Source of the DNA: a virus
Lineage: Duplodnaviria; Heunggongvirae; Uroviricota; Caudoviricetes
IMG/VR virus record: IMGVR_UViG_2541047433_000022
Length of the DNA: 7,311 nt
Reading direction: 5' to 3' (one strand)
The notes under the pieces are model-generated. The model saw only the letters and a program-made list of their open reading frames with translations, was not told where the DNA came from and ran no database searches. Of the stretch, positions 1,492 to 6,976 are shown in pieces (the first letter of the stretch is position 1; the number at the start of each line of letters is the position of its first letter). The translations under genes and the position numbers were made by a program.

Positions 1492-1910
1492 TTCTCAATC
1501 TCTCGATGGCGCAGTGCAGCAGATGCCAGTTGTTCAAGCTAGCACGCAAATTGTAAACCAGAATGCCAGGAAAAAACAAAACCCGCCGAAGCTGGTTGTG
1601 TGCGGTTGCGTTGAAGTCTCCTAGCCAAAGAGTAGCGGTGACCACTCCCCGCCGATAATCTTAGTTGTTTAATTTCGTAAGCTAACTAGGCTAAAAGCTC
1701 TCTGTTGTCTGCCTGTTGTACAATTAACAAAATGAACAACGAACTAGATATACCAACGCCAGAATGGTGCAACAAATCCCAAACAACACAGCAATGCAAC
1801 AATAACATATGTTATTTTCCTCTCACGGGATTCAGTCCTGAATTCTCATAAAGCTAATCTTTTTTTAAAAACATACTGTTAGATCACATGCACTTTCTTT
1901 CTTAACATCG

Positions 1911-1938
1911 TTGACTTCGCATGCGAAGCGTTTAAAAT
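1911..1938 (+). promoter_or_regulatory. Sigma70-type promoter for the ATPase operon: -35 TTGACT (1911-1916), 16-nt spacer, -10 TAAAAT (1933-1938)
   Basis: Hexamers read directly from the sequence. The predicted start site near 1945 leaves a ~45-nt leader before AGAGAG (1979-1984) and the ATG at 1991. Confidence 0.45.
1915..1928. promoter_or_regulatory. Perfect 14-bp palindrome CTTCGCATGCGAAG overlapping the -35 and filling the spacer; candidate operator
   Basis: The sequence is identical to its reverse complement. Its position inside the promoter is the classic place for a repressor site. No regulator gene was identified in the window. Confidence 0.45.
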
Positions 1939-1990
1939 CAACAATTTGCACTTAAGGTATTTATTTTCCCAAACACATAGAGAGTAAATT

Positions 1991-3382
1991 ATGACTGAGA
2001 ACACGACTCCAACAGCAGACTTTAGTCCTAGTAAAAGATTTTTTGTAAGTATGCTAACTCGAGATATCGACTTAAACGATGCCATACTTGATCTGCTTGA
2101 TAACTGCGTCGATGGGGCTTTACGTACAATAAAAGACACAAAAAAAACTTCAAAACCATATGAAGGATTTTATGCGAAACTTACGATTAATAAAGATGTC
2201 TTTATTATAGAAGACAATTGCGGAGGTATCCCTAAAAGCTTCCGAGAATATGCTTTTAAAATGGGACGACCCCATCAAAAAGAAGAAGAAAATGAAGGCA
2301 CCGTTGGCGTCTATGGTATTGGTATGAAAAGAGCCATTTTTAAAATGGGTAGAGATTGCTCAATACAATCGAATAATCCCGATGGCGCATTCACTGTAGA
2401 TATAACACCTGATTGGATCGATGGTGATGGTTGGAAAATACCGATGCACGAGAGTGACTATGATAACAAAAATCCAACAGGCACAACTATAGAGATAAAA
2501 AAACTCCATTCTAATGTGGCACAAAAATTTAATGAGAGCACATATCTTACTGATCTCTTTTTACAGATAAAACACTCATTGTCATTTATTATTCAAAAAG
2601 GATTTAAAATAGAATTAAATGGAGTTGTTGTTGAACATAATCCGATTAACATCATAACTGATCATTCTAAAATAGAACCATACATATATAAAGCTAAAAT
2701 AGACGATGTTGATATCGATTTAGTTGTTGGCTTCTATAAAAATTTAGAAGATGACAATGATGATGTTTTAGAAAAAAGGAGTTCTGATGATGCTGGATGG
2801 ACTGTCATTTGCAATGACCGCGTTGTTCTATATTGTGATAAGACACATCTCACAGGTTGGGGCTTTGCTAATGTACCAAGGTTTCATACCCAATTTATAG
2901 CAATTTCTGGGGTTGTTCGCTTTACCAGTAAAAACCCAGAAAAATTACCAATAACAACAACGAAACGAGGTGTCGATCTTAGTTCTACATTGTACAATGA
3001 TGTACGAAATAAAATGATTGAAGGGATGATGCATTTTATTCGATTCACCAATCAGTGGAAAGGTGAGCATCTTGAAGAAGGGAAAAAATTACTTAAGTCA
3101 GCTCAGTCACATGAAGCTCAATCTTTATTTGAAATTACCCCACAATCAACTCCAGAAGATAAAAAAAATAACTGGTCCAACCCTAATAGAAACAAAAATG
3201 AGTGGCGATATACACCTAAGCTGCCTACCCCAGTAAAAAAAAGCTCTACTGTACGAATAATCTTCACCAGAGAGAAAGAAGATGTTAAAATTTTATCTAA
3301 ATATTTCTTTGGACATGAAGATGCTAGCGCTTCTGATGTGGGGATGCAATGCTTTGATACGGTGATTGAAGAGGTGAAGTGA
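1991..3382 (+). CDS. GHKL (Bergerat-fold) ATPase, MutL/MORC-like (HATPase_c_3-type) N-terminal domain with an unassigned C-terminal half, 463 aa
   Basis: Three motifs in canonical order: N-box ILDLLDNCVDGA (aa 33-43, nt 2087-2119), G1 box IEDNCGGIP (aa 73-81, nt 2207-2233; compare MutL DNGCGI) and G2 box GVYGIGMKRAIF (aa 106-117, nt 2306-2341). No membrane segment or histidine-kinase dimerisation region precedes the ATPase domain. The C-terminus is Lys/Asn-rich. Confidence 0.8.
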   Translation: MTENTTPTADFSPSKRFFVSMLTRDIDLNDAILDLLDNCVDGALRTIKDTKKTSKPYEGFYAKLTINKDVFIIEDNCGGIPKSFREYAFKMGRPHQKEEENEGTVGVYGIGMKRAIFKMGRDCSIQSNNPDGAFTVDITPDWIDGDGWKIPMHESDYDNKNPTGTTIEIKKLHSNVAQKFNESTYLTDLFLQIKHSLSFIIQKGFKIELNGVVVEHNPINIITDHSKIEPYIYKAKIDDVDIDLVVGFYKNLEDDNDDVLEKRSSDDAGWTVICNDRVVLYCDKTHLTGWGFANVPRFHTQFIAISGVVRFTSKNPEKLPITTTKRGVDLSSTLYNDVRNKMIEGMMHFIRFTNQWKGEHLEEGKKLLKSAQSHEAQSLFEITPQSTPEDKKNNWSNPNRNKNEWRYTPKLPTPVKKSSTVRIIFTREKEDVKILSKYFFGHEDASASDVGMQCFDTVIEEVK

Positions 3383-4371
3383 TGTCTGGACAATACATTC
3401 CCTATCACTTAAGGCATAATAAGTCTATTGATAGAGAGATTTTTCTCGAAAGCCTAAACCTCTTAAGCAAAAGACTAAATATTCAAGAATATACATATAT
3501 AGGTTTTGGTGGTCCGATGCTTGAAGATTTTAGAATCATGCATAATCGTATCGCTCTTTCTGATATGATTTCTCTCGAAGAACAAGAGTCTACTCACATC
3601 AGACAAAAATATAATTTGCCTTATAATTGTATTGATTGTAAGCTAATATCAGCTCATGACTTTATTCTTGATTATAGTTTTTCTAAACCATCAATAACAT
3701 GGTTAGACTATGCCTCCCCGAAAAAAATACAAACGGATCTAGATGATATACACTTACTAAGTACTAAAGTAAGCTCTTTTGATATTTTGAAGGTCACCTT
3801 CCCCATAAATCCTAGTTCTTATTACCAACGTAGAGTTGGAGAAAGTTTAGATATTTTTAAAGAAGCTTTTATTAATTCATTAAAATCATTGCTTGGGAAA
3901 AAGTATCTTGATTTTAATCTTCAGATATCAAATGCAGATCTTTCAGATCGTAAGATTAAAGCTCTTTTAATACGAATTATTACAAACGCTTTTAGATCAG
4001 CAATAGAACGTGGTCTTTCAGGACGTAAGGATAAGATTCAGTATTACCCATTATCCTTAAATCAATATAATGATGGCAGTCATACCATGTTGACAATATC
4101 AGGTTTTTTCTCCTCAGAACAAGAATATATAGAGTTATCTAAGGCATGCGACCTTTCTAACTGGCAATTTTATTCAACAAATTGGGAAGACGTGCAAGAA
4201 ATAGCAATACCAACACTAACAATTAAAGAAAAGATAAATTTAGATAGTAAACTGCCTGATAAAGAAGCATATCAGGCAGCCGCTGAAGAGTTCTCTTTAA
4301 ACGAAAATGAACGGGATAACTATTATAAATACTATAGGTTATACCCTAACTTCCAAAGAATTATGGTTTAA
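3382..4371 (+). CDS. Hypothetical protein, 329 aa, operon partner of the GHKL ATPase; function unknown (candidate effector)
   Basis: The ORF track starts at GTG 3379, but ATG 3382-3384 overlaps the ATPase stop (TGATG, 3380-3384), so the two genes are translationally coupled. Same ~30% G+C as the ATPase gene. I found no clear PD-(D/E)xK, HNH, HEPN or Walker motif by eye. Confidence 0.7.
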   Translation: MSGQYIPYHLRHNKSIDREIFLESLNLLSKRLNIQEYTYIGFGGPMLEDFRIMHNRIALSDMISLEEQESTHIRQKYNLPYNCIDCKLISAHDFILDYSFSKPSITWLDYASPKKIQTDLDDIHLLSTKVSSFDILKVTFPINPSSYYQRRVGESLDIFKEAFINSLKSLLGKKYLDFNLQISNADLSDRKIKALLIRIITNAFRSAIERGLSGRKDKIQYYPLSLNQYNDGSHTMLTISGFFSSEQEYIELSKACDLSNWQFYSTNWEDVQEIAIPTLTIKEKINLDSKLPDKEAYQAAAEEFSLNENERDNYYKYYRLYPNFQRIMV

Positions 4372-5490
4372 ATATTCGGGCTGTACTCTTTTATTTAATA
4401 AATTGTACAGCCCCTTTAATATATATTCAGCAACTATTGGTGACACGCTATTTCCTATTTGTCTGAAACTATGCCATTTAGTTACATGAAAGCGAAACCA
4501 ATCAGGGAAGCCTTGTAATCTAGCAGCTTCTCTTGGTGTAATCACTCTTGGATGATAAGGGTGGATCGGCCTGACGGCTTGAAAGCTTCCTTTATCTCTA
4601 GCGGTTCCCGCCCTTAAAGTCGGGCAAAAACCATTTGGATCTAATCTTGTAGATCTTGAAATTTTATCAGTTTCCCCAAAAGATAAGGAAGCATAACGCT
4701 CTTGGACGATTTTGCTATGTAATGTTCCGGTACATCCAGATATGATATTATTTTTTAACTTAGCGATCGATTCTGTATCACCAACATTCCGAGGGATCTG
4801 CCCCCATAATTTTTCATAAAATCCCCCTTTTCGATCTTTTTTAATTGTTCGCCAACTCTCAGAGTCTGATTGCCAATTGGCATCGATAATATCTGGTAAT
4901 CCATACAAAGCATCTTTTACAGTAACCGGATCAATCATTTTAGGCATAAATACTTCATCTGAAATATCAAGCTTCAATGATTTTTTTACACCGATAAAAA
5001 AATATCTAGTTCGAATAGTTGGAGCACCATAATCAGATGCTTTTACCTTGATGGGATCAAGAATATCATAATCACCGCTAACCAAATTAAATGCTTTATT
5101 TCTAATGCCAGAATATTTCTCTTGCATAATACCTGGAACATTTTCTGCCAAAAAGAATAATGGCTGTAATTCTGATACTAAACGGTAGAAATGCATGTAA
5201 AGCTGATTCCTGCTATCATCAGGATTCCCCTTGCCTATTGAACTAAATCCTTGGCACGGAGGACCGCCAATAATACCATCTATGGGCATATCGTTTTTAA
5301 AAAAACCCTTAATTATTTCTGCATTTAGTAAAGAAACATCTTCTTGGACGTGCAAACTTCTTGGAAAATTAATTGCGTGAGTATTAATAGCATGTTGATC
5401 AATTTCAACTGCCATTTTAACATCAAATCCAGCACGTGCAGCACCAAGACTTAGACCTCCAACGCCAGAAAACAAATCTATTACATTCAT
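4339..5490 (-). CDS. DNA (cytosine-5)-methyltransferase, 383 aa
   Basis: Canonical motifs in order: I DLFSGVGG (aa 5-12, nt 5455-5478), IV GGPPCQGFS (PCQ = aa 78-80, nt 5251-5259), VI FLAENVPG (ENV = aa 116-118) and X QIGNSVSP near the C-terminus. A variable target-recognition region lies between VIII and IX. The 3' end overlaps the partner gene by 33 bp (4339-4371). Confidence 0.9.
   Translation of the reverse strand: MNVIDLFSGVGGLSLGAARAGFDVKMAVEIDQHAINTHAINFPRSLHVQEDVSLLNAEIIKGFFKNDMPIDGIIGGPPCQGFSSIGKGNPDDSRNQLYMHFYRLVSELQPLFFLAENVPGIMQEKYSGIRNKAFNLVSGDYDILDPIKVKASDYGAPTIRTRYFFIGVKKSLKLDISDEVFMPKMIDPVTVKDALYGLPDIIDANWQSDSESWRTIKKDRKGGFYEKLWGQIPRNVGDTESIAKLKNNIISGCTGTLHSKIVQERYASLSFGETDKISRSTRLDPNGFCPTLRAGTARDKGSFQAVRPIHPYHPRVITPREAARLQGFPDWFRFHVTKWHSFRQIGNSVSPIVAEYILKGLYNLLNKRVQPEYLNHNSLEVRV
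4378..4413 (+). terminator. Hairpin (9-bp stem GGGCTGTAC / GTACAGCCC, 18-nt AT-rich loop) followed by CTTTAATATATATT; possible terminator of the plus-strand operon
   Basis: Inverted repeat read directly, 7 nt after the partner stop codon. It lies inside the last codons of the convergent MTase gene. The long loop and interrupted T-tract make it a weak terminator candidate. Confidence 0.3.
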
Positions 5491-5522
5491 ATAGTTGCAA
5501 CGTCTCTTATTAGTTTCTATGT

Positions 5523-5531
5523 ATTATAACA
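5523..5531 (-). promoter_or_regulatory. Extended -10 promoter element (TGT-TATAAT on the minus strand) upstream of the MTase gene
   Basis: Revcomp of 5523-5528 is TATAAT and is preceded by TGT (5529-5531). It sits ~32 nt upstream of the MTase ATG (5488-5490), with AAGAGA as a weak ribosome-binding site. No good -35 is present, which is consistent with an extended -10 promoter. Confidence 0.35.
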
Positions 5532-5742
5532 CAACTGTTCTTGATGTTTTAACCCCATAAGATAACCTCATAAAGGCTATCCCTTGAAAATACCGGATCG
5601 CATAAATTTAATCTTTCAAAACTACTTGTCTATTAATCGAGCAATTTAAGGTTGTTTTAGTCATGTCGATACCGACATAGTTAACTAAACCCATTTCATC
5701 GTCCAACAAATGGGGGTAATACACTTTGATTTATAGTCGGGT

Positions 5743-5778
5743 GGGTTTTTCTCTATCTGCCTTTGGTGTTCATGCCCA
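5743..5778. repeat. Perfect 11-bp inverted repeat CTATCTGCCTT / AAGGCAGATAG with a 14-nt loop at the right border of the low-GC insert
   Basis: Read directly from the sequence. It is not followed by a U-tract on either strand, so it is not a typical intrinsic terminator. Function unknown. Confidence 0.5.
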
Positions 5779-5921
5779 AGGCAGATAGCCTCAAGCACCC
5801 GCAGCAATTCTACTTAACTCTCCTTTTCCCGCAAACCGTTTTTATCTCCAGCGACAAATCGAATACACAACCAGCACCACCGCCATTACTGTTCCTACAT
5901 TTGCGAATGCTTCAGGCCAGG

Positions 5922-6317
5922 TCATTGATTCACCTTCTGCTCAATATTTTTAAGGTCATTTTCCGCATACAGTATTGCAGTTCTTGCTGCCCGCAACCGT
6001 GCTTTGGTGTTCTTTTCTTCACGCTCGAGGCTGGCAACAGATTCTCGGAGCTGATCGTGTCTGTTATGAAGCTGTCTAATCTCTCTCACCACAGCCTCAC
6101 CATCGTTCGCACACCGCAGAACATACTGAAAAGGGTCCACAACACATCCGCACTGCAAGCACAGGATAACGTGATCCTGTTCATGAACCTCAATGGCCCG
6201 ATGCTTACAGCTCTGTTGTGTGTAGTTTTTTCTGCCAGTTACTGTAATGTTCAGCAGCTTCTCTTCATCGCGCTTTGGCTGCACCAGTGTGATGATATTA
6301 TCGCCTTCATTTTCCAT
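5922..6317 (-). CDS. Hypothetical phage protein, 131 aa, with a Cys cluster (possible zinc ribbon) and C-terminal coiled-coil-like region
   Basis: Listed ORF 5922..6392 trimmed to the ATG at 6315-6317, which overlaps the upstream stop (TGATG) and follows a perfect AGGAGGT (revcomp of 6324-6330). Cys pattern: SCKH...ILCLQCGC...LRCAND. Confidence 0.6.
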   Translation of the reverse strand: MENEGDNIITLVQPKRDEEKLLNITVTGRKNYTQQSCKHRAIEVHEQDHVILCLQCGCVVDPFQYVLRCANDGEAVVREIRQLHNRHDQLRESVASLEREEKNTKARLRAARTAILYAENDLKNIEQKVNQ

Positions 6318-6976
6318 CAGTTCACCTCCTGCGGCGGTTCTGGTAGCGGCATCCAGTGTGACGGTTTCCACGACGCACCAGGAATTATCCACCCATCATT
6401 AGCGTCAGGATGCCCCGGGATGTAAGTCGCCCACTTCATTCGCCAGTCACCTTTCCTGTCAAACTCCACGGCAACAAGAACGGCTGTTTTGGTATCCGGC
6501 ATTCGCTCACTACAACTTATCCAACCATCCGGAGTTACCGGAGAGTTGCCAGACAGCGCATTCTGCAACCGTTCCAGCTTAACGTATTCCTGAACCCTGT
6601 TTCCGTCGCACGCCTGAAGCCATTGCTCAGCCTTTTGCGCATCAGTGTGAAAGGCACAAGTGCGACCGTCATCAAATTGCATTTCGTAGAGGTTAGCAAT
6701 CTGTTCAAACTGCGTGTGTGGCAACTTGTAAGTTTGGCTTACGAGTTCGGCTTCCAGTTCTGCTATGCGCTTCTCTGATGCTTCAAGTAACGCCTGCTTA
6801 TCGCGTAGCGCTTCTTCCAGTTCAGCAACATGGCATTCACTATCAATAAGGTTGTTCTCTGCTGCTCCCAGCTCAACTCTCAGCTTCCCAACCGTAAGCG
6901 CAATCTCCTCGTTCTCCTGGTCGCGGCGTTTGATGTATTGCTGGTTTCTTTCCCGTTCATCCAGCAGTTCCAGCAC
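6317..6976 (-). CDS. C-terminal part of an Ead/Ea22-like protein with a DUF551-type end (...SHWMPLPEPP), 219 aa as listed
   Basis: The listed start is a GTG. The same frame stays open upstream to 7033 and reads ...NAEFIAEANPATVLELLDE, which looks like genuine protein sequence. Coiled-coil-like heptads (AELEEALRDKQALLEASEKRIAELEAEL) precede the conserved W/P-rich C-terminus. Confidence 0.5.
   Translation of the reverse strand: MLELLDERERNQQYIKRRDQENEEIALTVGKLRVELGAAENNLIDSECHVAELEEALRDKQALLEASEKRIAELEAELVSQTYKLPHTQFEQIANLYEMQFDDGRTCAFHTDAQKAEQWLQACDGNRVQEYVKLERLQNALSGNSPVTPDGWISCSERMPDTKTAVLVAVEFDRKGDWRMKWATYIPGHPDANDGWIIPGASWKPSHWMPLPEPPQEVN

Follow-up and report, generated by a model that had tools for sequence, protein, structure and literature searches.

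A Methyltransf_35 protein coupled to a MORC-type ATPase in a mobile cassette with a Dcm-type methylase

The DNA analyzed here (the window) is a stretch of 7,311 nucleotides from a virus of the class Caudoviricetes, IMG/VR record IMGVR_UViG_2541047433_000022. Its plus strand carries, at positions 3382-4371, a gene for a protein of 329 aa, located immediately downstream of a gene for a GHKL ATPase of the MORC type and convergent with a gene for a C5 DNA methyltransferase of the Dcm type. The 329-aa protein was found to be a full-length member of the Pfam family Methyltransf_35 and is referred to below as MT35. On balance, we lean towards regarding it as the S-adenosylmethionine (SAM)-dependent subunit of an obligate module of MORC and methyltransferase, which would occupy the "R" slot of a mobile cassette resembling a 5-methylcytosine (m5C) restriction-modification (R-M) system.

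The MT35 gene is a conserved coding sequence and more than a chance reading frame. An earlier prediction, made from the window alone, had described it as tightly coupled to the GHKL gene, and this was confirmed by the junction between the two genes. The ATG of MT35 (3382-3384) and the TGA of the GHKL gene (3380-3382) have one base in common, forming TGATG, and GAAGAGG was found 7 nt upstream of the ATG; an alternative GTG start is located at 3379. The coupling was further borne out by the pairing of the two genes in essentially every related locus.

Prophage Sp10 of E. coli O157:H7 Sakai encodes the same protein as ECs_1954 (100% identity), and the Prokaryotic Genome Annotation Pipeline (PGAP) names it O-methyltransferase (WP_000016656.1). 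Its homologues formed 57 clusters at 90% identity, all with PF20553, while the family as a whole comprised 2120 clusters at 50% identity (E ≤ 1e-3) from more than 10 phyla. Among the 150 family clusters listed, all members were stand-alone proteins of about 330 aa. The original prediction had allowed for an open reading frame (ORF) that might not be conserved; intact ORFs of about 330 aa were instead present in 80 genomes of many phyla and in 49 viral contigs. Transcripts of both ECs1954 and ECs1955 have been detected and were co-regulated, falling into the same cluster and dropping at a growth transition (-2.6 and -3.2 fold), and the pair is expressed in lysogens.

The match of MT35 to PF20553 (Methyltransf_35, "putative O-methyltransferase") reached E=2e-89 and 300.4 bits, against a cut-off of 27 bits, and was full-length, with residues 1-328 aligned to profile positions 1-308 of 309. 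In PHROGs, the protein matched phrog_19983, a group of unknown function, with E=1.7e-154. A model built by AlphaFold2 from a 30-sequence alignment had a predicted local distance difference test score (pLDDT) of 89 and a predicted template modeling score (pTM) of 0.88, with low confidence at residues 1-9. It showed the β1-β7 strand order of class-I SAM methyltransferases, with a seven-stranded sheet, a β6-β7 hairpin and alternating helices. All structural neighbours of the model were SAM methyltransferases, the top ones being the tRNA and rRNA enzymes Trm1, RsmD, RlmJ, and RlmI/RlmO.

Sequence searches did not extend this likeness. Only chance matches (E ≥ 0.09) were obtained against PDB sequences with either the single protein or the 30-sequence profile, and no match to E. 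coli RlmJ emerged when the family profile was aligned with it by hhalign (probability 0.2), so that the resemblance to RlmJ is a fold-level analogy. NCBIfam and PADLOC contained no model for the protein.

Residue conservation was counted over 80 sequences from many phyla. In the model, β1 (residues 38-42) leads into G41-F-G43-G44-P, which is motif I. The glycine-rich stretch IGFGGPMLEDF, at 3499-3531 (+), is this loop, with glycine retained at positions 41, 43, and 44 in 74, 77, and 70 of the 80 sequences, respectively, and D49 in 79. The same stretch had been noticed in the original prediction, slightly displaced at about 3505-3540, and a SAM-binding loop had been offered there as speculation. 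That guess turned out to be correct, since the loop follows β1 of a class-I fold and residues are conserved in MT35 as in enzymes whose SAM site is intact.

β2 (residues 61-66) ends in E66 (3577-3579, +; 79/80), the acidic residue of motif II. In class-I methyltransferases this residue contacts the ribose of SAM, and the role of E66 is assigned from that topology. β3 spans residues 84-88. β4 (residues 104-109) ends in W107-L-D109-Y110 at 3700-3711 (+), the position of motif IV, or the catalytic loop; W107, D109, and an aromatic Y or F at position 110 were found in all 80 sequences. β5 covers residues 135-141 and is followed by a poorly conserved helical insertion at residues 144-212 (3811-4017, +), where mean pairwise identity was 0.21 compared with 0.39 in the core. 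The β6/β7 hairpin (residues 220-244) includes a conserved part at 4066-4089 (+) with Y229 (78/80), D231 (79/80), and M236 (77/80).

At the N-terminus, every named residue of the motif Y8-H-L-R11-x-N13-K14-x-x-x-R18 (3403-3435, +) was invariant. Conservation of 95-100% was observed for Y8, H9, L10, R11, N13, K14, R18, Y39, G43, D49, E66, R74, W107, D109, T139, Y229, D231, M236, P277, and E283; in all, motif I, E66, and D109 were at least 90% conserved across phyla, as were some 20 other residues. Taken with the modeled fold, this pattern indicates that MT35 is probably a SAM-binding, catalytically active enzyme of the class-I methyltransferase fold. The view in the original prediction that the protein has no recognizable catalytic motif was therefore abandoned in the light of the family match, the PGAP name, motif I, E66, and D109; the profile and structure searches that it had proposed as checks made the protein recognizable through PF20553 and SAM-methyltransferase neighbours.

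The type of reaction is less clearly indicated. The W-L-D-Y/F sequence is not of the DPPY type, since PP is absent, and a regular expression for motif IV of DNA N6-adenine and N4-cytosine methyltransferases, (D/N/S)PP(Y/F/W), had no match in MT35. PCQ (motif IV) and ENV (motif VI) of DNA C5-cytosine methyltransferases are absent from MT35, while both are present in the adjoining Dcm. K14 (80/80), D109 (80/80), and E283 (79/80) could occupy three positions of the K-D-K-E tetrad of 2'-O-ribose methyltransferases. At position 137, the candidate for the second lysine, 58 of the 80 sequences have K and 21 have R, which makes the tetrad doubtful. The "O-" of the database name was unsupported by every motif tested in the protein.

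The absence of other catalytic signatures was as originally predicted. Regular expressions for Walker A, Rx4-6H, HxK(x)4D, PD-(D/E)xK, and GIY-YIG found no match in MT35, loose H..H matches of the HNH type fell at non-conserved positions, and no nuclease domain was found by Pfam, NCBIfam, or PADLOC. A membrane segment is likewise lacking, as the maximum 19-residue hydropathy was 0.8.

The partner gene, at 1991-3382 (+), encodes a protein of 463 aa with the features of prokaryotic MORC proteins, namely a GHKL domain for ATP binding, a domain of the S5 fold, and the S5-domain signature GhXhhpXXRhl, with which Iyer, Abhiman, and Aravind 2008 (PMC2292703) defined the MORC family. In the window protein the signature reads GWTVICNDRVV (residues 269-279), and it was kept in 75 of 80 relatives. 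The C-terminal part of about 110 residues is helical and without a conserved acidic or histidine cluster; for this reason, no nuclease is present in the pair of MORC and MT35. A match of the GHKL protein to MzaB was insignificant (E=0.037).

Gene neighbourhoods were compared across 129 loci, of which 80 were genomic (GTDB species genomes) and 49 viral (IMG/VR contigs). The MORC gene was located directly upstream of MT35 in 79/80 genomic loci, typically with an overlap of 4 bp, and in 48/49 viral loci; both exceptions were cut by the end of the contig or locus. Dcm homologues were found in 67/80 genomic loci, either convergent at the 3' side, as in the window, or co-directional at the 5' side in the order Dcm-MORC-MT35, and in 49/49 viral loci. 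Vsr (PF03852, E=6e-30) was found in 26/80 genomic loci, sometimes in one operon as Vsr-Dcm-MORC-MT35 or Dcm-MORC-MT35-Vsr. Beyond MORC, Dcm, and Vsr, no neighbour is conserved.

Pairwise identities of MORC and MT35 co-varied with a rho of 0.46, while for either protein against Dcm the values were 0.13-0.16. Mean identity was higher for the MORC protein (0.45) than for MT35 (0.34). The flanks were Tn7-like (TniQ/TniB/TnsC), P2-like, integrase-bearing, or made up of scattered defence genes. The pair is a mobile cassette, usually with Dcm and often with Vsr.

Several further features of these loci were recorded. In eight distantly related genomes (L013:9061-10824(-), L014, L017, L018, L022, L024, L030, and L034), Dcm is directly adjoined by an additional MORC-like GHKL protein of greater length (546-610 aa, HATPase_c_3, motif G-h-x-h-h-C-N-D-R), and a four-gene layout of Dcm, long GHKL protein, MORC, and Methyltransf_35 recurs; the C-terminal extension of the long protein, about 200 aa, had no Pfam match. 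A cysteine-rich protein of about 256 aa (CxxC...CxxC), also without a Pfam match, adjoins the module in six loci of different phyla (L079:9823-10593(-), L010, L014, L026, L051, and L064) and may represent a fourth, optional protein of the module, perhaps of the HNH type. In Scytonema/Nostoc (L002, L004, and L008, about 6470-8990), a lone pair is situated at the same place between ndhF/ndhD-like NADH-dehydrogenase genes, with no Dcm within 8 kb, and looks like a vertically kept, Dcm-independent copy. In L053, a Myxococcota metagenome-assembled genome lacking Dcm, the pair is flanked by helicase-like ORFs of 616 aa (1746-3596(+)) and 1198 aa (6035-9631(+), with Cys clusters), which are reminiscent of defence-island helicases.

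In 23 loci the module is carried by a P2-like prophage, where it takes up all or nearly all of the space from the portal gene gpQ to the replication gene gpA, or at least the greater part of it. This interval is the old/tin locus, a hotspot of anti-phage systems (Rousset et al. 2022), and Table S5A of that study contains arrangements of 'DNA_methylase + HATPase_c_3 + hypothetical' in the hotspot. In the part of the supplement available, HATPase occurs only in Tables S1, S5, and S6, so that no sign was seen of the arrangement having been assayed. Table S6 also contains, for a prophage hotspot of Vibrio parahaemolyticus S130, a 'Kinase-methylase' composed of GIY-YIG, HATPase_c_3, TadZ_N, and DNA_methylase; it was considered as the same system and rejected because of its different domain set, and it represents another cassette of GHKL protein and C5 methylase among unknown systems.

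In the reading towards which we lean, Dcm would mark host and prophage DNA. A MORC dimer would act as an ATP-driven DNA clamp or motor, clamping being established for MORC/GHKL proteins generally, and is expected to form a complex with MT35. MT35 would then engage the nucleic acid or serve as the effector subunit, using SAM and no nuclease on DNA that lacks the mark; such a module would discriminate DNA by its m5C and may serve against phages.

If this is true, an ATP-driven clamp and a methyltransferase-fold enzyme can take the place of a nuclease in the "restriction" slot beside a DNA methylase, and the module would offer a bacterial model for the coupling of MORC ATPases to DNA methylation, a coupling still to be explained for eukaryotic MORCs. 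For detection tools it is a candidate defence system, and it may influence the phage susceptibility and transformability of enterohaemorrhagic E. coli (EHEC). The family itself is large and neglected, with about 2,100 clusters, and occurs in prophage Sp10/CP-933R of E. coli O157:H7 and in P2-like prophages.

A bolder form of the proposal appears unlikely to us: the pair would be a nuclease-free restriction machine that reads DNA without the m5C of the cassette and either clamps and compacts it, a silencing of the kind known from eukaryotic MORC, or adds a toxic or flagging methyl group. Were this so, eukaryotic methylation-linked MORC silencing would have in the module a prokaryotic counterpart, perhaps even a forerunner, carried on EHEC prophages and P2-like phages.

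Several observations weigh against a restriction-like role of the module. Neither the GHKL protein nor MT35 matched any PADLOC-DB 2.0 family at E ≤ 1. Since the module is without a nuclease, it is not a classical R-M system. The insertion at residues 144-212 was considered as a specificity domain matched to Dcm; its identity was compared with that of the target-recognition domain of Dcm, the correlation was nil (rho ~0.00), and the idea was dropped, as this result argues against MT35 reading sequence in step with Dcm. The pairs of the three Nostocales loci (L002, L004, and L008) and those of L036 and L053 have no Dcm nearby, which makes self-toxic restriction awkward unless unlinked methylases protect the host. 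No experimental study of any PF20553 member or of a MORC and methyltransferase pair was found in the literature. Finally, the old/tin hotspot also holds cargo unrelated to defence, such as partition systems and toxins (Rousset et al. 2022).

Four other explanations were weighed. The one that fared best, which we nevertheless consider quite unlikely, is an effector of the abortive-infection type, in which MORC senses foreign DNA and the methyltransferase modifies tRNA, rRNA, or a translation factor, leading to growth arrest. The tRNA and rRNA methyltransferases at the top of the structural neighbours would fit such a role, as would the many invariant basic residues (R11, K14, R18, R74, and K/R137), which suit a polyanionic substrate, and the position of the module in prophage hotspots.

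It seems decidedly unlikely that MT35 is a second DNA-modification enzyme in a modification-only or epigenetic island, for example one shielding prophage DNA, with MORC as a loader or processivity factor. The methyltransferase fold with its intact SAM-site signature, the lack of a nuclease in the module, and the co-directionality of Dcm with prophage early transcription are compatible with it. Against it stand the lack of (D/N/S)PP(Y/F/W) and PCQ/ENV in MT35 and the wide occurrence of the module in chromosomes and Tn7-like elements, beyond phages; moreover, known DNA methyltransferases, to our knowledge, need no ATPase.

We hold it improbable that MT35 is a catalytically dead fold serving as a SAM sensor or a scaffold for MORC, for instance one sensing SAM depletion by SAM-degrading enzymes of phages. 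In its favour, the residues of the SAM site are conserved, and no substrate is known for the family among the systems considered. However, about 15 residues beyond the SAM-site motifs are invariant (Y8, H9, R11, N13, K14, R18, R74, W107, D109, Y229, D231, and E283), the Asp of motif IV is present, and the pattern looks catalytic. Very improbable is an accessory of very-short-patch repair, with MORC as a MutL-like helper of a mobile Dcm-Vsr cassette and MT35 as an adaptor: Vsr is found in 26 of the 80 loci, sometimes in the same operon, and a MutL-Vsr analogy is noted in the available text of Iyer et al. 2008 (PMC2292703), but most loci, including the window, are without Vsr, the cyanobacterial pair persists without Dcm and Vsr, and the conserved SAM site would be left without a role.

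The setting of the module in the window is a low-GC island (about 1650-5750, GC 31-40% compared with 47-52% in the flanks, from the composition profile) inserted into a lambdoid prophage at its nin region, whose genes for DUF1367, DUF1364, and a DUF1133 antiterminator are on the minus strand at 51-1491. The island carries exactly three genes, as judged from how the identical DNA of strain SD134209 and of Sakai Sp10 is annotated. The island was present at 99% identity or higher in 173 of 5426 complete E. coli genomes, while a megablast search against GenBank phage genomes gave no match; its occurrences are prophages and IMG/VR contigs.

The third gene, at 4339-5490 (-), encodes the Dcm-type enzyme of 383 aa (Pfam DNA_methylase, E=2.6e-61), which has the full set of C5-methyltransferase motifs. 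It is the only island protein that matched PADLOC-DB 2.0, to generic methyltransferase models. It is near-identical to PDB 3g7u (E=1.3e-254), which we take to be the structural-genomics entry of the CP-933R methylase, so that a crystal structure of the methylase of the module already exists.

The 3' ends of the MT35 and Dcm genes overlap by 33 bp (4339-4371). Elsewhere, overlaps of 6-50 bp were observed in L015, L020, L023, L025, L041, L045, and most viral loci, the overlap being 40-50 bp in enterobacterial copies of the P2 type and 16 bp in those of Firmicutes; most of the convergent loci overlapped, and a few had small gaps. The overlap could permit antisense or transcriptional interference between the halves of the module.

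Two promoter-like sites, both weak calls with 10/12 matches, were noted: TTGACT-16-TAAAAT at 1911-1938 (+), about 50 nt upstream of the MORC gene, and TTAAAA-18-TATAAT with an extended TG at 5523-5552 (-), upstream of the Dcm gene. Promoter and terminator scans of the region did not exceed shuffled expectation (19 promoter-like sites compared with a shuffled mean of 18). Beyond the island, an ORF of 220 aa at 5763-6425 (+) is wholly antisense to two overlapping prophage ORFs of 156 and 219 aa (5922-6976, -); it is probably spurious, because RefSeq contains only short minus-strand genes there.

Methylation-linked defence without a classical restriction enzyme is known from BREX, with its methyltransferase PglX, and from DISARM. 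The likeness to these systems would be a 'works-like' analogy only: a methyltransferase-fold protein and an ATPase would target unmodified DNA with no nuclease involved, while self is marked by methylation. In contrast to them, the present module is without PglZ, BrxC, BrxL, and DrmA/B/C, its marking enzyme is a separate C5 methylase, and it consists of two to four genes.

Among proteins of related fold, Trm1, RsmD, RlmJ, and RlmI/RlmO act on nucleic-acid bases and show no detectable sequence homology to MT35. They carry DPPY/DPPF as motif IV, whereas MT35 has W-L-D-Y/F, is tied to a MORC gene, and is borne on mobile elements. As an annotation MT35 is not new, since it is a catalogued, full-length member of the uncharacterized family PF20553 (PHROG 19983), for which no characterized member was found.

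A GHKL-family ATPase is also found in paraMORC3, or Shedu type I-D, exemplified by VcSduA, where the ATPase is fused to a DUF4263 nuclease and anti-phage activity has been demonstrated (PMC12137116). The effector there is a fused PD-(D/E)xK nuclease, whereas the effector slot of the present module is taken by a separate methyltransferase-fold protein; the V. cholerae system is therefore different and was rejected as the same system.

Neighbourhoods of MORC with Dcm and Vsr were read as R-M systems by Iyer et al. 2008 (PMC2292703), as far as the available text goes. The MORC/paraMORC neighbourhoods described in that text share with the present module the GhXhhpXXRhl signature, Dcm, often Vsr, and a distribution pointing to lateral transfer; a helicase is absent from the module. 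The MORC partners named there are nucleases (restriction-endonuclease fold, HNH, and HKD) and SF-II helicases, whereas the only constant partner found here is a methyltransferase-fold protein; no endonuclease was detected among the island genes or the conserved neighbours, and a methyltransferase is present. A Methyltransf_35 partner is not described in the portion of the text available. The description that suits the system best is that of a variant of the R-M-like neighbourhoods associated with MORC, composed of MORC and Methyltransf_35, usually with Dcm and sometimes with Vsr, and without a nuclease or helicase.

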